Assembly (NCBI GenBank): GCA_026387335.1
Contig: JAPLLX010000007.1
Coordinates: forward strand, 243 to 64,242
Source: Candidatus Omnitrophota bacterium
GTDB lineage: Bacteria; Omnitrophota; Gorgyraeia; Gygaellales; Profunditerraquicolaceae
Reading direction: 5' to 3'
DNA length: 64,000 bases
Below, piece by piece: positions 5,815-63,051 of the stretch. Positions within the stretch are counted from its first letter, which is position 1. The number at the start of each line of letters is the position of its first letter. Under the pieces are notes generated by a model, which was not told the origin of the DNA, did no database searches, and saw only the letters and a program-made list of their open reading frames with translations. The position numbers and the translations under genes are program-made.

Positions 5815-7005
5815 ATGAACTCAGAGTTAATGATAAGCTGGCGGTATTTGACCACTAAGAGAAAAGAAAAATTCATCTCTCTTATCAGTATCATCTCAAT
5901 TTTGGGGATAGCTATAGGAGTGATGGCTTTAATCATAGTTATCGCGGTTATGTCGGGTTTTGATAAGGACCTGCACGATAAGATAATCGGAAATTATTCA
6001 CACATTAATTTGACCGCTTTTAAGGCGATAGGGGATAGTGAATACGCGGTTATCGCCAAAAGCGTTTCCGCTAATCCGCACGTTATCGGAATAAGCCCTT
6101 ATATACAGGGACAGGTCTTATTGAAAGATAATAACCGCTATTTTGCCGTAGGATTAAAAGGGATCAACCCCGCGGCGGAAAGCAAAGTCACTAAAGTCAG
6201 GGAATATATAAAGCAGGGCAGTATTGATAATTTAGCGGAAGGCTCGATTATCGTCGGTAAAGAGTTAGCCGGATATTTAGGTTTAGAATTAAATTCTAAC
6301 CTTTCTCTGCAGTCGCCTTTAGGCAAACAATATACCCTGAAGGTCGCCGGGATCTTCAGTTCCGGGATGTATGATTACGACCTTAACCTGGTGTTTACGA
6401 ACTTAAAAACCGCGCAGGATATTTTTGGGCTGAATAACCAGATAACCAGCGTGGCCCTGAAACTGGATAATCCGGATTTAGCGGCTCAAATCAGGCAGGA
6501 ACTGGCTTTGGCATTAGGTTATAATTATAACCTAAAGACCTGGATGGAGGCGAACCAGAATTTCTTTGCGGCCTTAAAATTAGAAAAACTGACTATGTTT
6601 ATAATCTTGACTCTAATCATATTAGTCGCTTCATTTAATATCATCAGTACTCTCATAGTCATGGTGGTCGAGAAAACAAAAGATATCGGCGTATTAAGGG
6701 CGCTGGGGATGAGCGCTTTGAGCATAAGAAAGATATTTACTTATCAGGGTTTAATAATCGGGTCATTAGGGACATTGCTGGGGTCTTTTAGCGGAATACT
6801 TATATGTTTTTTGCTTAAAAAGTACCAATTTATAAAATTACCGCAGGATATATATTATATTGACCGCTTGCCTGTGATCATCCAGATTTGGCCGGATATG
6901 GTTTTAATCGTTGTGTCGGCTTTAGTCATAATTTTAGTGGCGACCATATATCCGGCGTCCCGGGCCAGCCGTTTAAAACCGGTAGAGGCATTAAGGTACG
7001 AATAG
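5815..7005 (+). CDS. lolC: Lipoprotein-releasing system permease LolC/LolE (FtsX/MacB family)
   Basis: N-terminal TM, periplasmic domain, C-terminal 3 TM, followed by LolD-type ATPase. Confidence 0.8.
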   Translation: MNSELMISWRYLTTKRKEKFISLISIISILGIAIGVMALIIVIAVMSGFDKDLHDKIIGNYSHINLTAFKAIGDSEYAVIAKSVSANPHVIGISPYIQGQVLLKDNNRYFAVGLKGINPAAESKVTKVREYIKQGSIDNLAEGSIIVGKELAGYLGLELNSNLSLQSPLGKQYTLKVAGIFSSGMYDYDLNLVFTNLKTAQDIFGLNNQITSVALKLDNPDLAAQIRQELALALGYNYNLKTWMEANQNFFAALKLEKLTMFIILTLIILVASFNIISTLIVMVVEKTKDIGVLRALGMSALSIRKIFTYQGLIIGSLGTLLGSFSGILICFLLKKYQFIKLPQDIYYIDRLPVIIQIWPDMVLIVVSALVIILVATIYPASRASRLKPVEALRYE

Positions 7006-57689: not shown

Positions 57690-57738
57690 AATTCTGCGTT
57701 AGATTTTGCCACCTCCTCCGTCTATTTAAGTAGGGTAT

Positions 57739-58026
57739 ATGACTAATGCAATTTCGGTTGAAGTTATAGCTACAAAGATCTTAGAGATAAGAGGTAAAAA
57801 GGTTATGCTGGATAGCGATCTGGCTAAGCTTTATGGCGTAGAAACCAAAGTATTAATTCAGGCTGTAAGAAGAAATAAGGCGCGCTTCCCGCTCGACTTC
57901 ATGTATATACTCACAAGACAAGAGGTTATGAACTTGAGGTCACAAATTGTGACCTCAAGTTGGAGCGGGAGAAGAATTGAGTTATCTTCTTCGTTGTCAA
58001 GCCTACCCAAAAGTGCTATAATTTAA
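57739..58026 (+). CDS. ORF6N (KilA-N-like) domain protein, C-terminally truncated/degenerate
   Basis: IRGKKVMLDSDLAKLYGVETKVLIQAVRRNKARFPLDFMY...RSQIVTSSWSGRR. Family C-terminal region absent. Confidence 0.6.
   Translation: MTNAISVEVIATKILEIRGKKVMLDSDLAKLYGVETKVLIQAVRRNKARFPLDFMYILTRQEVMNLRSQIVTSSWSGRRIELSSSLSSLPKSAII
57995..58022 (+). promoter_or_regulatory. Strong promoter TTGTCA-N16-TGcTATAAT (extended -10) at the 3' end of the ORF6N gene
   Basis: Direct reading. Confidence 0.5.
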
Positions 58027-58042
58027 CAACTTAGGAGAAAAT

Positions 58043-58081
58043 ATGTCTTTAGCTGAGTTTGCGATCACCTTATATTTATAA
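58043..58081 (+). CDS. Candidate 12-codon leader peptide uORF (MSLAEFAITLYL) with strong SD
   Basis: aggagaaaatATG. Stop TAA 10 nt upstream of a terminator hairpin. Confidence 0.25.
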   Translation: MSLAEFAITLYL

Positions 58082-58090
58082 CTATATTTA

Positions 58091-58117
58091 ACCCAGCCAC
58101 GTAGACTGGGTTTTTTT
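58091..58117 (+). terminator. Hairpin ACCCAG-ccacgtaga-CTGGGT + T7 between the uORF and the MazG-like gene (attenuator candidate)
   Basis: Direct reading. Confidence 0.45.
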
Positions 58118-58142
58118 GTTTCACTTTAGAAAAGGAGTTTTG

Positions 58143-58490
58143 ATGAACGAAATGAAAGAAATTACTGAAAAAATCAAGAAATTTAGAGATGAGCGTGACT
58201 GGATGCAATTTCATGATCCTAAGAATATGGCTGTTTCAATAATACTCGAAGCTTCTGAGCTGCTTGAGCATTTTCAATGGAAAACTACCGAAGAAGTAGA
58301 AAGATATTCAAGGAAAAATCTCGCTGAGATTAAGGATGAAATTGCAGACATAGCCTTATATCTTTTTGAATTAGCCGATAATCTCGGTATCAATTTAATT
58401 GATGCGATGGATCAAAAACTTAAAAAAAATGAAATGAAATATCCGGTGGAAAAAGCTAAAGGAAAGCATACAAAATACAATAAGCTATGA
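58143..58490 (+). CDS. MazG-like nucleoside triphosphate pyrophosphohydrolase (small all-alpha NTP-PPase)
   Basis: ERDWMQFHDPKNMAVSIILEASELLEHFQW...EIADIALYLFELAD. SD aaaggag. ATGA overlap with next gene. Listed TTG start 58116 lies in the T-tract. Confidence 0.7.
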   Translation: MNEMKEITEKIKKFRDERDWMQFHDPKNMAVSIILEASELLEHFQWKTTEEVERYSRKNLAEIKDEIADIALYLFELADNLGINLIDAMDQKLKKNEMKYPVEKAKGKHTKYNKL

Positions 58491-60865
58491 GACTCTATGA
58501 GGGGTCAATCAAGGAATTTTCGGAAGACGTAATACATAATCGTATCGCAGATATATTAAAAGATAACTTTCTCGCCTACTATAGAAGACCACCCTCAGAA
58601 CCAGAATATCGTTCCTGGCAGCAGTCACTAAATTTCCTAAATAACGCATTCACGTATTCAGATTTATTGAATAATAAAATAATAGTGGAGTATGAATTAC
58701 CATATTCAACTCGGCGCATCGATGTGTTGGTGTTTGGGAAGAATAATTCAAATAAGGATAGTGTTGTTTTAATGGAGTTAAAGCAATGGTCTAATGAACA
58801 TGTCTATGATTGTGAAAATGAAGGTAATGTAATAATAGATTTTCTTGGTAAGAGAGAGGTAGCTCATCCTTGTTTACAAGTTGAAGGATATCATTTTGAT
58901 TTATTAGATTTTCTGTTGATTTTTAATAGTGATGACGCAGTGCAGCTAAATTCTTGCACATATTGTCACAATTATACTAAGCAAAAAGAAAACATACTCT
59001 CGCTCCCCAAATTCCATAAATTCACCAAGGCTTTTCCTCTGTTTCTCAAAGAAGATGTCAGAGAATTGGGCCTTTATTTGCAGGAGAGATTAAAGAATAG
59101 TGACGGGCTAGAAGTCTTTAGTCGTTTTTTAAATAGCCCTGTTCGACCTTCGAAAAGATTACTAGATCACACTGGCGATATGATTCATAAGCAGCAAATA
59201 TTTACGCTTATTGATGATCAAATCGCTGCTTATAATGCGATTATTAGCAAAGCTAAGCAGTTAACTAAGACAAGTACAAAGTCTATTATTGTTGTAAAGG
59301 GTGGTCCTGGAACAGGCAAGTCAGTAATTGCATTAGAAGTTATGGGCGAGCTGATGCGTCAGGGTAAGGTTGTATATCATGCTACCGGTTCATCCGCATT
59401 TACAAATACATTGAGAAAAATTGTTGGACGTAGAGCATCAAATCTCTTCAAATTCTTTTTTAACTTTACGCAGCACAAGGAGAACGAAATCGATGTTCTG
59501 ATATGCGATGAGGCCCATAGGATTAGGTCGGATAGCAATGATTATGGGGTGCCTTCTAAATTTAAATCAAAAAACCCTCAAATAGATGATCTTATAAGGC
59601 CCGCAAAGTTATCGATATTTTTTATAGATGAATTCCAGATTGTCCGTCCAAAGGAGATTGGTAGTGCTGAATTAATAAAAAGTTCAGCCGCTAAATTTGG
59701 CGTAAATGATAAAGACATTGTAGAATTCGAACTTAGGACGCAGTTCCGTTGTTCCGGGTCAGATGCATATTTACAGTGGTTAGACAAGCTACTGGAGATT
59801 AGAGAGTCTGATATAGATATTTTTGATGCAAAAATGGAGTTTAGAATTTTTGAAACTCCAGTAGATTTAAAAAGAGCAATTGATGAGAAAAATAGACACA
59901 AGGAGAATTTAGCTAGAATTGTTGCTGGTTTCTGTTGGAAATGGAGTGAACCGAATCCAGACGGTTCATTAGTAAAAGATGTTCAAATAGGTGACTTTCA
60001 AATGCCCTGGGAGAAGAAGGATGAATTTTGGAAGTGGGCTACTGATAAGAGTGGTATGGAGCAGGTTGGGACAGTCTATACAGCTCAAGGTTTTGAATTT
60101 GACTATATAGGTGTAATCTTTGGAGACGACCTCGTTTGGCGCAAAGATAAAGGTTGGATTAGTATTCCTGAGAATTCTTTTGATAAACAGGTTTTAAGAG
60201 GGAATCAAAAGCTAACTGATCATCTTAAACATGTTTATAGAGTGTTGATGTCGCGCGCTCATAAGGGAGTTTATTTGTATTTCATGGACAAAGAAACAGA
60301 AATGTTTTTTAGGACTAAGATTGAAAGCAGGGATGGCGCTTTGATGTTTTCTGATATTGTTAAAGAGGATGAAAAGCAGTCTAAAGAGCCAGTGCCGACG
60401 ATCCCGGAAAATCTGCAGTTTAGAGATTATCTCCCTATTTTATCACTTGAAGCGGTTGCAACGTCATTCGGTAAAGAAACACAGGTTGAACAAGAACCGA
60501 TTGGTTGGATCAAGGCCGATATCCCTAGAACTTTGAATAAAGACATGTTTGTTGCGAAAGTGGTAGGTAAGTCAATGGAACCGACTATTCCTGATGGAAG
60601 CTATTGCGTATTTCGCTTTGACAAAGGAGGGACCAGGAATGGATTAGCTGTCCTTGTGGAGTGTCATTTAATTTCTGACCCTGAAACGACGAGGCAGTTT
60701 ACAATAAAGCGGTATAAAAGCGAGAAAGAATATTTTGACGATGGGACATGGAGACATAAGAAAATAATTCTTTCTCCTGATAATAATGATTTTAAAGATA
60801 TCGTTTTGGAAGATGTGCCCGCTATCGAATTTCGAGTTGTAGCGGAGTTTATGTGTGTTTTATAA
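58487..60865 (+). CDS. Multidomain defense-like protein: PD-(D/E)xK nuclease motif + DUF2075/Schlafen-Nhi-like DEAH ATPase + C-terminal LexA/S24-type Ser-Lys peptidase domain
   Basis: E68/D79/E97-x-K99 (VEYE...RIDVLVF...VVLMELKQW). Walker A GGPGTGKS (aa 272-279) and Walker B VLICDEAHRI. C-terminal VGKSMEPTIPDGSYCVF...FTIKRY preceded by LEAVATSFG. Confidence 0.7.
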   Translation: MRLYEGSIKEFSEDVIHNRIADILKDNFLAYYRRPPSEPEYRSWQQSLNFLNNAFTYSDLLNNKIIVEYELPYSTRRIDVLVFGKNNSNKDSVVLMELKQWSNEHVYDCENEGNVIIDFLGKREVAHPCLQVEGYHFDLLDFLLIFNSDDAVQLNSCTYCHNYTKQKENILSLPKFHKFTKAFPLFLKEDVRELGLYLQERLKNSDGLEVFSRFLNSPVRPSKRLLDHTGDMIHKQQIFTLIDDQIAAYNAIISKAKQLTKTSTKSIIVVKGGPGTGKSVIALEVMGELMRQGKVVYHATGSSAFTNTLRKIVGRRASNLFKFFFNFTQHKENEIDVLICDEAHRIRSDSNDYGVPSKFKSKNPQIDDLIRPAKLSIFFIDEFQIVRPKEIGSAELIKSSAAKFGVNDKDIVEFELRTQFRCSGSDAYLQWLDKLLEIRESDIDIFDAKMEFRIFETPVDLKRAIDEKNRHKENLARIVAGFCWKWSEPNPDGSLVKDVQIGDFQMPWEKKDEFWKWATDKSGMEQVGTVYTAQGFEFDYIGVIFGDDLVWRKDKGWISIPENSFDKQVLRGNQKLTDHLKHVYRVLMSRAHKGVYLYFMDKETEMFFRTKIESRDGALMFSDIVKEDEKQSKEPVPTIPENLQFRDYLPILSLEAVATSFGKETQVEQEPIGWIKADIPRTLNKDMFVAKVVGKSMEPTIPDGSYCVFRFDKGGTRNGLAVLVECHLISDPETTRQFTIKRYKSEKEYFDDGTWRHKKIILSPDNNDFKDIVLEDVPAIEFRVVAEFMCVL

Positions 60866-60875
60866 TTTCTAAATA

Positions 60876-61571
60876 ATGTTTAAAGCCGGTGATGTAATTT
60901 CATACATTGAAATGTGCCAAGAAGAAGGTATAAGTCTTCAAAGAGGAATGAACTTTCGACTTAAAGGAAGACACAGTGTAATATTGATGAGTCTCAGACG
61001 CAATGCTCCATATGCTGATAAGGTTGAAGATAATGGCAAGACATTAATATACGAAGGTCATGATATCCCTCGGTTTAATAGAGCTCAAGATTCAAAGCTG
61101 GTTTCTCAACAAATGCAGAATCCCGGAGGTAGTTTAACTCAGAATGGGTTTTTTTATAAAGCAGCGCATGATTACAAAAATAAGAAGTCTGATGCAGAGC
61201 TAGTCAAGGTATATGAAAAAATTCATTCAGGAATATGGGCTTATAACGGTTTATTTAAACTAGTTGATTCGTGGCAAGAAGAATCGAATAAAAGAAAAGT
61301 ATTTAAATTCAGACTTGAAATAGATAAAATAAATTCTAAGGGCAAACAGCCAGAAAATTTTGATTTGGATCGTAACAGATTAATACCTGCATCTGTAAAG
61401 CTAGCGGTTTGGAAGAGGGATAAGGGGAAGTGTACTAAATGCGGCAGCCCTGATAATTTACATTTCGACCACATAATTCCTTATTCAAAAGGCGGGTCTT
61501 CTTTAGTTGCAGAAAACATTCAGTTGTTATGCGCAAGACATAATATTGAAAAGCGAGATAGGATTGAATAA
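60876..61571 (+). CDS. SRA/PUA-like N-terminal domain + C-terminal HNH endonuclease (type IV restriction-like architecture)
   Basis: HNH motif CTKCGSPDNLHFDHIIPYSKGGSSLVAENIQLLCARHN. N-terminus EEGISLQRGMNFRLKGRHSVILMS...KVEDNGKTLIYEGHD resembles the SRA/YDG core. Confidence 0.6.
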   Translation: MFKAGDVISYIEMCQEEGISLQRGMNFRLKGRHSVILMSLRRNAPYADKVEDNGKTLIYEGHDIPRFNRAQDSKLVSQQMQNPGGSLTQNGFFYKAAHDYKNKKSDAELVKVYEKIHSGIWAYNGLFKLVDSWQEESNKRKVFKFRLEIDKINSKGKQPENFDLDRNRLIPASVKLAVWKRDKGKCTKCGSPDNLHFDHIIPYSKGGSSLVAENIQLLCARHNIEKRDRIE

Positions 61572-61657: not shown

Positions 61658-62017
61658 ATGTTTGAACAGAAACATCAAAAAATAGCTCCGGTTTCGGTAT
61701 TCATAAGAAGAGTGGCTGTATATATTGGAATCGCCATTCTGGTGATTTTAATCGCCCTGTTCATTGGGGTTGCCGGATATCATTGGATAGCTGGTTTTAG
61801 TTGGGTTGATTCATTGCTAAATGCGTCTATGATCCTGGGTGGCATGGGTCCGGTAAACCTGTTGAGTAATGCAAGCGCAAAAGTATTCGCCTCCCTGTAC
61901 GCGCTTTTCAGCGGTCTTGTATTTATTGCCGTAATGGGAATAGTTTTTACGCCAATCGTGCATAGAATGCTCCATAAATTTCATATGGATGAAAAAGATT
62001 TAAAGGGTTCGATATAA
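61658..62017 (+). CDS. Small 2-3 TM membrane protein, hypothetical
   Basis: Hydrophobic helices. Last gene of the low-GC island. Confidence 0.35.
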   Translation: MFEQKHQKIAPVSVFIRRVAVYIGIAILVILIALFIGVAGYHWIAGFSWVDSLLNASMILGGMGPVNLLSNASAKVFASLYALFSGLVFIAVMGIVFTPIVHRMLHKFHMDEKDLKGSI

Positions 62018-62023
62018 AGAGGG

Positions 62024-62051
62024 GAAATAATACTTGACAAATAGAGAACAA
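62024..62051 (+). promoter_or_regulatory. Consensus promoter TTGACA-N16-TATACT heading a ~200-nt leader with tandem terminators
   Basis: Direct reading. Near-identical to the 41204 promoter. Confidence 0.45.
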
Positions 62052-62092
62052 GTGTTATACTTTTAATAACAGCGATGTTAAAGAGGCACAGA

Positions 62093-62125
62093 AGCCCCAA
62101 AAATGTTTTGGGGTTTTTTCATTTT
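62093..62125 (+). terminator. Intrinsic terminator GCCCCAAAA-atg-TTTTGGGG-TTTTTT in the leader. Two further hairpin+T-tracts follow at about 62137..62175 and 62190..62237.
   Basis: Direct reading. Confidence 0.5.
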
Positions 62126-62253
62126 TAAGGACAAGGACGCCCTTTTTAAGGCAAAAACGCTTTGAAAGGGGCTTATTTTTTATAGACGATGGCGTCTTAA
62201 ATCCAGCGATGGATCAACGACGCCTTTTTTGTTTAGGCGGGAAAAGGGGATAA

Positions 62254-63051
62254 ATGAAAAAGTTGGGGATTCTCTTAATGGTTTTGTTAATGAGTACGCT
62301 AAGTTTTAGCGCGCTTTATGCTACCCCCACAACGCTTATCTGGGCGCCATCTACAGACGTAAAGCCGTTGGGGGTCTTCCATCTGGATGTAGATAATTAC
62401 ACTCCGGTAAGAAGCAGGGACCATAATGATAATAAATTATTTGTTCTGCAGGATTACGGTCTAATGGCCGGGTTGTTGCCGGATAATCCGCAAGAAAATC
62501 CTCTTGGTAAACTTTGGTCTCCTTTAGGCAAGATTTTGGCGGAAACAGGTTTTGACTATAAAAAAGGTTTAGGTTCAACATTAGACAAGTGGCCGGTGTA
62601 TTTCCATTTTAAACTCGGGATTCCCGAGGATGCCTATTTTAGAAATATGCCCGCGTTTGCCGTTGGTTGTTATGATATGGGTTATAAGCATAATTATACC
62701 AACTATAATGTCTGGTATTTAAGGGGGGCAAAGACTATTAATATAGGTAAGATTAATTTAGGCAGGTTCTCCGCCGGTTATTTTAACGGTAATGCCAGGT
62801 TATTGCGCGATAAAAACAGCGAGCGTGATAACGCCGGCGCGATGGTTGCCTGGGAACGGGTTATGACGGAGATAAGCGACAGGCTTTGGATATGCGTGGA
62901 TTATCAGGGTACCCAGTCAACATATGGAGCGCTCAACTACGGTTTATCCTGGAAATTCACCAATAATATTGCGGCTATCCTGGCTTACGATGTATATAAC
63001 AACCCGAATTCGAAGAATACTGTGACATTTCAACTAGACGTTGACTTTTAG
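62254..63051 (+). CDS. Putative outer-membrane beta-barrel (porin-like) protein
   Basis: Signal peptide, alternating beta pattern, C-terminal ...QLDVDF aromatic terminus. Immediately upstream of amtB. Confidence 0.5.
   Translation: MKKLGILLMVLLMSTLSFSALYATPTTLIWAPSTDVKPLGVFHLDVDNYTPVRSRDHNDNKLFVLQDYGLMAGLLPDNPQENPLGKLWSPLGKILAETGFDYKKGLGSTLDKWPVYFHFKLGIPEDAYFRNMPAFAVGCYDMGYKHNYTNYNVWYLRGAKTINIGKINLGRFSAGYFNGNARLLRDKNSERDNAGAMVAWERVMTEISDRLWICVDYQGTQSTYGALNYGLSWKFTNNIAAILAYDVYNNPNSKNTVTFQLDVDF

Follow-up and report, generated by a model that had tools for sequence, protein, structure and literature searches.

A conserved block of promoter, tiny ORF and terminator ahead of a MazG-like operon

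Toxicity is common among anti-phage systems, and protein repressors of the XRE, WYL, BrxR and CapW types are given most of the credit for keeping them under control. In a 64-kb stretch of DNA from an uncultured Omnitrophota bacterium (the window), we read the region from 57700 to 58400 for regulatory parts and found a compact block, composed of a promoter, a 12-codon upstream open reading frame (uORF) and an intrinsic terminator, directly ahead of an operon encoding a MazG-like protein, a Schlafen-type helicase and an SRA-HNH nuclease. On sequence evidence, this 115-nt block may well be a cis-acting leader that gates expression of the operon by way of read-through, a reading to which we give about an even chance. 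Its parts are listed below in the order of their first positions.

57994-58022, + strand: promoter P1, with the -35 element TTGTCA at 57994-57999 and the TG-extended -10 element TATAAT at 58017-58022 (TGCTATAAT)
58005-58120, + strand: conserved module (promoter spacer and -10 element, Shine-Dalgarno (SD) sequence, uORF, AU-rich block and terminator), with sharp boundaries
58029-58058, + strand: predicted 5' stem-loop ACUUAG/CUGAGU enclosing the uORF SD and AUG, from minimum-free-energy folding and the RNAalifold consensus of three homologues
58033-58037, + strand: uORF SD, AGGAG, 5 nt 5' of the ATG at 58043, read from the sequence
58043-58081, + strand: uORF of 12 codons, MSLAEFAITLYL, with a TAA stop at 58079-58081
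58071-58093, + strand: AU-rich block TATATTTATAACTATATTTAACC, spanning the 3' end of the uORF, its stop codon and the spacer
58090-58117, + strand: intrinsic terminator, stem AACCCAG (58090-96)/CTGGGTT (58106-12) with a 9-nt loop, and T7 at 58111-58117
58132-58145, + strand: SD of the MazG-like gene, AAGGAG (58132-58137), 14 nt past the T-run, and its ATG at 58143

The spacer of P1 is 17 nt long and ends in TGC, giving the layout TTGTCA-N14-TGC-TATAAT. The initial annotation had located this promoter correctly, at the end of an ORF6N reading frame, and had miscounted its spacer as N16 followed by TGC. From the position of P1, transcription is predicted to start near 58029. The uORF reads as first annotated, with AGGAG five nucleotides ahead of the ATG and a stop at 58079-81; its frame is closed upstream by a TAA at 58019-58021, with no other start codon between. 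The hairpin does stand immediately before the SD and ATG of the MazG-like gene, as had been claimed. Its stem has 7 bp, 4 of them G-C pairs, and begins 8 nt after the uORF stop codon (58081 to 58090), not 10 nt. This G+C-rich stem-loop runs straight into a U-tract, in the manner of an intrinsic terminator. Folded alone, the hairpin has a free energy of -9.2 kcal/mol (z = -2.6); our terminator scan overlooked it because the scan limited loops to 8 nt. The fold of the whole leader is as stable as those of its shuffles (z = 0.0), and the terminator alone stands out. Within the AU-rich block, which is unpaired in the predicted folds, 22 of 23 positions are invariant in a three-locus alignment; the block may be a pause region, a protein or Hfq-type site, the seed of a small RNA (sRNA), or the -10 element of a weak second promoter. 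Little weight can be placed on the predicted 5' stem-loop around the uORF SD and AUG, because no compensatory change accompanies it. An SD-led short ORF ending beside the hairpin arose in 2% of dinucleotide shuffles of the window leader (P = 0.02).

Homologous leaders at two other loci

For comparison we assembled 71 genome and 80 metagenome loci with the MazG-like protein as anchor, designated by L numbers. BLASTN with the upstream region gave two matches, both in metagenomic loci, L114 2156-2275 (87%) and L112 536-658 (80%), and an nhmmer search across the 151 loci found leader homologues in L112 and L114 only. Exact matches to the proteins led only to contigs that are identical to the window or to L114, or that carry a different upstream region; those identical to the window occur in SRR20698638, SRR20698650, ERR15302187, ERR15302205 and ERR15302224. 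The window holds no second copy of either conserved block on either strand. When the three loci are aligned, conservation runs from CCCAAAAGTGCTATAAT through the T-run and stops abruptly on both sides. Identity within the module is 79-86%, against 19-49% in the flanks and 30-50% at fourfold-degenerate sites of the MazG-like gene, where synonymous change has reached saturation. The module must thus either be under strong purifying selection or have been exchanged as a unit.

In all three homologues the uORF is open, in frame and 12 codons long, and TTAGGAGAAAA around its SD is invariant. The peptides of the relatives, MSLSEFMFTIYL and MFLPGVASILYL, vary in their middle residues, and the stop codon is TAA or TAG. 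Conservation of the uORF had been proposed as a check on its function; SD, ATG, length and frame passed it and the middle of the peptide did not, so that on these alignments the uORF behaves like a regulatory ORF. The gap between uORF stop and stem is identical in L112 and L114. The terminator stem is maintained at -11.8 and -15.2 kcal/mol, respectively, through one compensatory pair (A-U to G-C) and G-U changes.

The genes that lie upstream of the module differ: an ORF6N remnant in the window, a GIY-YIG gene in L112 and a HigB/HigA-like pair in L114. The hairpin is therefore not the terminator of these genes, ORF6N included. On the downstream side, the L114 module precedes the SRA-HNH gene, which there is the first gene of the cassette, with a gap of about 22 nt to the next gene, and conservation among the three loci is lost between the T-run and the next start codon.

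The promoter is shared and is the only one that fits

P1 matches the consensus at 11 of 12 positions, carries the TG extension in addition, and is the best site within 3 kb. It belongs to a class of sites that is over-represented in this genome: 10 sites with at least 11/12 matches occur in the 64-kb window, against 2.1 expected in shuffles, and 4 of the 10 are TG-extended, against 0.1 expected. The gene-rich strand carries all but one of the ten, and one is directly 5' of a tRNA-Pro gene. Near-consensus sigma-70 promoter sites are clearly in use in the genome from which the window derives.

The promoter sequence CCCAAA(A)GTGCTATAAT is kept in L112, L114, L097, L140 and L078, and the promoter core CCCAAAGTGCTATAAT, with a -35 element of TTGTC[AT] or TTGCCT, is present in several other loci; a scan of a viral collection gave no match to this core. 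What follows the promoter differs among the loci that share it. In L097 and L140 it leads into a different 12-codon uORF (MWGLNMIRITWR and MLGQSKIRITWR, respectively) whose stop lies inside the 5' arm of the terminator, and in L013 a close variant of the core, CCCAAAAGTTGTATACT, stands ahead of a 10-codon uORF and then a terminator. L078 has the shared promoter and then directly the SD and ATG of the MazG-like gene, with neither uORF nor terminator. As far as sequence comparison can tell, P1 is a genuine promoter and is that of the operon.

It is also the only credible promoter, and the predicted terminator lies between it and the first gene. Our scan found no promoter-like site 3' of the hairpin, where the 14 nt from T-run to SD are too tight to hold one. 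Since no promoter fits after the terminator, expression of the operon would need read-through.

Recurrence of the architecture at other MazG loci

The order promoter, SD-led ORF of 7-13 codons, hairpin with T-run, MazG-like gene was found again in L097/L140, L013, L003/L083, L072/L087/L102, L016, L028 and L118. In L003/L083, L072/L087/L102, L016, L028 and L118 the parts follow one another in the same order and their sequences are unrelated to that of the window; the uORF of L072/L087/L102, for instance, has 7 codons and encodes MKEVSNI. In L097, L140, L003 and L028 the uORF stop falls within the terminator stem. These analogous modules are set in long stretches between genes, with the previous gene 130-400 nt away, and in three other families the module is 81-92% identical, compared with 56-83% at fourfold sites of MazG.

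Two counts point to an excess of such leaders. A terminator lies 12-62 nt upstream of 21/130 non-redundant MazG genes and of 26/501 other genes at the same loci (odds ratio 3.5, P = 1e-4), an enrichment to be read with the caveat that MazG is usually first in its cassette, which itself raises the odds of an upstream terminator. Among the independent terminator-bearing families, about 8 of 19 have an SD-led uORF beside the hairpin, against about 6% expected from shuffles (binomial P ~7e-6, or 2e-3 under the most generous null); dinucleotide shuffling of single leaders yields an SD-led ORF of 4-25 codons ending beside the hairpin at a rate of ~2-13% per leader. For comparison, ordinary genes with a terminator within ~100 nt past the stop have the hairpin within 12 nt in only 18% of cases, although the test of uORF-to-hairpin distance is partly circular, the search window having set the range.

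Taken together, conservation, the different upstream genes, the promoter shared with L078, recurrence and enrichment bear out the initial annotation in treating the region as a functional leader of the operon and not as the terminator of ORF6N. Because similar modules recur with unrelated sequence, the signature of a promoter, a tiny ORF and a terminator directly before a promoterless cassette may help in searching uncultured phyla for regulated defence cassettes.

How the leader would gate read-through

Transcription from about 58029 would meet the intrinsic terminator within ~90 nt, and the operon mRNA would come only from the fraction of polymerases that read through, which implies low expression by default of a possibly toxic system. 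Were a ribosome to reach the end of the uORF with polymerase still on the U-tract, it would sit on the 5' arm and keep the hairpin from forming, so that polymerase could read through. Because the uORF is so short, polymerase must be slowed or paused if the ribosome is to catch up; the invariant AU-rich stretch before the hairpin may be what slows or pauses it. What read-through reported would then be how fast transcription runs relative to translation, not amino acid supply. The uORF has no regulatory codons: MSLAEFAITLYL, MSLSEFMFTIYL and MFLPGVASILYL lack a repeated codon class.

Measurements in E. coli bear on the spacing. There, a ribosome represses a terminator 5-9 bp past the stop codon almost completely, terminator efficiency rises to ~0.9 beyond ~30 bp, and the repression is gone when translation is uncoupled (PMC4824070). 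The 8-nt gap of the leader falls inside the range repressed in E. coli, the host here being a member of the Omnitrophota. The geometry of a translation-coupled attenuator, as described in the initial annotation, thus stands (8 nt, within the E. coli range of PMC4824070); ribosome occlusion and conditional expression, which were read from that geometry, we continue to infer. E. coli terminators within the first 100 nt of an ORF work near-normally, the first ribosome not yet having caught polymerase, and the exceptions are cases in which pausing couples ribosome and polymerase, as in pyrBI (PMC4824070).

Several points weigh against gating by the uORF and its ribosome. Only ~75 nt separate the ATG from the U-tract, and in that interval a ribosome has to initiate and translate 12 codons; the default is then probably termination, with read-through when polymerase is slowed. 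Partial and full folds of ten leaders revealed no consistent antiterminator, the 5' arm of the terminator stays unpaired when the nascent leader is folded, and the sole candidate in the window, 58053-59 pairing with 58090-96, is weak (6/7 pairs) and not kept in L112. There are only three homologous copies with one compensatory base pair, so that the covariation is not statistically meaningful. At the terminator-bearing loci L005, L006, L007, L030, L048 and L150 there is no convincing uORF, and the SD is weak or lost in the analogous copies L083 and L087. In so compact a leader, the distance from uORF to hairpin is in part imposed. Finally, the sharp edges of the module and its different first genes suit an autonomous small transcription unit equally well. 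A scheme of alternative 1:2, 2:3 and 3:4 hairpins was also drafted for the window and was rejected, as it is not kept in L112.

Other explanations for the conserved block

The strongest alternative takes up the last of these objections: the block would be a self-contained small gene with a promoter and terminator of its own, producing an RNA of ~89 nt and perhaps a 12-aa peptide. It would act in trans, the invariant AU-rich stretch serving for instance as seed or chaperone site, with the operon expressed through incidental leak-through. The conserved unit spans exactly promoter to T-run and the sequence beyond is not conserved; the gene after the module is MazG in the window and L112 but SRA-HNH in L114; and its best-conserved part is the predicted single-stranded AU-rich stretch beside the terminator, a feature of many Hfq-type sRNAs. 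We nonetheless consider such a gene unlikely, if a serious contender. No complementary target of at least 20 nt occurs within the 64-kb window, the leader has no Rfam match (the best hits are at chance level; anti-hemB, for one, scores 18 bits where the cutoff is 49.5), and the uORF, with an unvarying SD and ATG and a length that is maintained, looks like one that is translated. Moreover, the module is always head-to-tail before a promoterless cassette, so that it would exert an effect in cis whatever else it does.

A more doubtful proposal is that a second promoter overlapping the uORF end, P2 (-35 TTGCGA at 58059-64, -10 TATATT at 58083-88), starts transcription at ~58095, within the 5' arm of the hairpin. 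An operon mRNA begun there would be free of the terminator, leaving the hairpin only to insulate the operon from P1 and upstream transcription. P2 is listed in our promoter scan at 9/12 matches, its TATATT is part of the invariant block, and TTGCAA-N18-TATATT occupies the equivalent place in L112. Sites with 9/12 matches, however, are no commoner than chance predicts (10 in 3 kb, with 10.2 expected), the -35 element is lost in L114 (TTTATG), and L097/L140, L013, L003 and L016 have no equivalent site. P2 would also leave the conserved SD, ATG and uORF unexplained.

We regard it as very unlikely that the block is a non-functional scar, that is, a terminator-bearing fragment, either inserted between the operon promoter and its first gene or left by rearrangement at a recombination hot spot, which merely dampens the operon and whose uORF is accidental. 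The region is rich in rearrangement debris, with the truncated ORF6N here and 3' remnants of XRE-type helix-turn-helix (HTH) genes at the same position elsewhere, and the promoter, SD and ATG of L078 resemble the start of the window uORF, which suggests an insertion or deletion between two SD-ATG sites. A scar does not account for a module that evolves more slowly than synonymous sites in four families, for a hairpin kept by compensatory change, or for an architecture that arose or was recruited repeatedly.

Least credible of all is that the hairpin, which does lie 64 nt past the ORF6N stop on the same strand, is the plain terminator of ORF6N and the promoter-like site a chance match: ORF6N here is only a truncated remnant, with homology that stops at ~57963-57976, before the module, the homologous modules of L112 and L114 come after genes unrelated to it, and the promoter is within the conserved block and common to L078, L097, L140 and L013.

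An XRE-type gene at the same position

In at least 7 loci (L001, L002, L004, L010, L029, L093 and L104) the end of an XRE-family HTH gene lies 23 nt ahead of MazG, and in at least 9 more, including L072, L080, L087, L089, L091, L096 and L121, only its 3' remnant (the last 17-50 codons) is present. The remnant is preceded by a promoter-uORF-terminator module in L072, L087 and L102. The RNA-level leader thus appears to occupy the place held in sister loci by an XRE-family gene, which suggests turnover between protein-based and leader-based control, with the protein regulator replaced repeatedly.

A bolder extension of this idea, which we offer as speculation with little probability, is that the module is a portable promoter/micro-ORF/terminator sensor that has repeatedly replaced the XRE-type repressor of Omnitrophota MazG/Schlafen-helicase cassettes and switches the cassette on when infection upsets the balance of transcription and translation. 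Nucleotide depletion or slowed polymerase, for instance, would let the pioneer ribosome catch up and so suppress the terminator. If this were true, an attenuator would be serving as the infection sensor of an immune operon. More generally, if read-through of the leader is coupling-dependent, a nucleotide-centred defence operon would be linked to the state of the host gene-expression machinery.

The cassette and its surroundings

The genes on either side of the leader are as follows.

57739-58026, + strand: truncated ORF6N remnant, a 95-aa ORF outside the module, whose 3' end overlaps the promoter
58143-61571, + strand: downstream operon of MazG-like, Schlafen-type helicase and SRA-HNH nuclease genes, identified with Pfam
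58143-58490, + strand: MazG-like gene, a pyrophosphohydrolase (Pfam MazG-like PF12643, E = 4e-20)
58487-60865, + strand: Schlafen-group-3 / DUF2075 helicase (Pfam), with a C-terminal S24 peptidase domain
60876-61571, + strand: SRA-HNH nuclease (Pfam)

Genes 1 and 2 of the cassette overlap, and genes 2 and 3 are 10 nt apart. The MazG-like protein has 115 aa, as do its homologues, which share its start position. Conservation of the MazG and helicase pair reaches across phyla, from the Omnitrophota to the Firmicutes and archaea. PADLOC matched the helicase only weakly to PDC-S41, AbiO and Nhi and gave no hit for MazG, and MazG-domain defence candidates have been predicted and are without validation (PMC13092281). 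To call the cassette a defence operon is reasonable but unproven. The C-terminal LexA/S24-like peptidase domain of the helicase comprises residues 679-783 and hints at control at the protein level by self-cleavage, in addition to the leader.

What the initial annotation had called the ORF6N gene is ORF6N by identity and not an intact gene, as the remnant covers positions 2-70 of the 86 in the Pfam ORF6N profile and is cut after about residue 78. Full-length relatives have 170 aa (L072 and L077). Nucleotide homology to L072 stops at ~57963, before the module, and the truncation junction lies just 5' of the promoter, so that cassette and leader adjoin a decayed gene. Inside the remnant is a perfect palindrome at 57931-57958 with 13-bp arms (CTTGAGGTCACAA TT GTGACCTCAAG), which is conserved in L072 and at which all five window-identical Logan contigs break. 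GIY-YIG, ORF6N and a 119-aa membrane protein (61658-62017; also in L025) resemble flanking markers of variable islands.

Just 3' of the cassette, at 62034-62254, is a second terminator-containing leader. It begins with a TG-extended promoter, TTGACA-N16-TATACT, at 62034-62061, followed by a hairpin GCCCCAAAA..TTTTGGGG with T6 (62093-62118), and a second terminator at 62191-62230 lies 29 nt before a gene for a 265-aa secreted protein. Rfam gives a weak PyrR-binding-site match at 62056-62180 (27 bits, cutoff 54). Elsewhere in the locus set, a hairpin and an A-rich tail lead through AAAACCTTC into a terminator in L072 (~60-140), L075 (~540-635), L023 (~6830-6900) and L027 (~110-205). This recurrent motif stands 14-58 nt before the start codons of NYN/LabA-like and secreted-protein genes of Omnitrophota. 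Rfam gives no match to it, and it could be a riboswitch-like leader that has yet to be described.

Another motif, AGCCA[ACG]CCGCTA, closes a structured-looking G+C-rich region, always on the MazG strand and ~130-170 nt upstream. The window lacks it, and Rfam has no match to it. It was found at these positions.

L003 271-282, MazG strand: AGCCA[ACG]CCGCTA
L007 3860-3871, MazG strand: the same motif
L083 1665-1676, MazG strand: the same motif
L091 217-228, MazG strand: the same motif
L095 75-86, MazG strand: the same motif
L096 2812-2823, MazG strand: the same motif
L100 934-945, MazG strand: the same motif
L111 2860-2871, MazG strand: the same motif

Two further RNAs scored above their Rfam cutoffs, a transfer-messenger RNA gene at L132 640-1075, ~2 kb 5' of the MazG cassette, and a group I intron at L023 1428-1705.

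Comparison with known leaders

An Rfam 15 search with the leader gave best scores of 18-21 bits against cutoffs of 49.5-90, and neither 18 related loci nor 5 further loci gave a leader match. We therefore compare the leader with known systems by architecture.

Type III toxin-antitoxin and abortive-infection loci (ToxIN, CptIN, TenpIN) are defence-related and likewise have one promoter, a short non-protein unit and a terminator just before the effector gene, and their terminator sets the ratio of short to full transcript (PMC3401426). Here the first gene is MazG-like and not a ToxN, CptN or TenpN endoribonuclease, and the leader has an SD-led ORF. A type III reading was rejected, as Tandem Repeats Finder detected no array in 57900-58142 (criteria of PMC3401426).

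The antibiotic-responsive ribosome-stalling leaders of erm, bmrCD, msrD/mef and vmlR resemble the window leader in placing a tiny ORF 5' of a terminator in the control of a stress or resistance gene, and in both the peptide sequence matters little outside a stalling motif. No stalling motif is common to the homologues of the leader. The erm-type leaders depend on alternative antiterminator and terminator hairpins that overlap the ORF, whereas none are detectable in the window leader.

With the classical trp, his, leu and thr attenuators the leader shares a promoter, an SD-led short ORF and an intrinsic terminator before the first structural gene. It differs from the trp/his type in two defining respects, having neither regulatory codons nor a conserved 2:3 antiterminator. 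In addition, its uORF peptide is shorter than known leader peptides and its operon is not biosynthetic.

The closest parallels are the rph-pyrE and pyrBI attenuators of E. coli. In these, as in the window, an upstream ORF ends near or in an intrinsic terminator directly before the regulated gene. A ribosome that follows polymerase closely blocks the hairpin in pyrE and pyrBI, as would be the case here, so that an antiterminator is not needed. A U/A-rich stretch precedes the hairpin in them as in the window. The differences are that the leader has no sequence homology to either and comes from another phylum, that its uORF has 12 codons compared with 44 in the pyrBI leader and a full gene in rph, and that it regulates a putative defence cassette and not pyrimidine biosynthesis. 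Two features that mark a coupling attenuator are present: the putative uORF ends no more than ~10 nt before the stem, and past the terminator there is no separate promoter for the regulated gene. A third would be polymerase pausing that responds to nucleotide level and lets the ribosome catch up, for which the invariant AU-rich block ahead of the stem is a candidate site. Position dependence and the precedent of pyrBI for coupling attenuation are documented (PMC4824070), and by analogy with them the leader is plausibly a coupling-type, pyrE/pyrBI-like attenuator in a new context.

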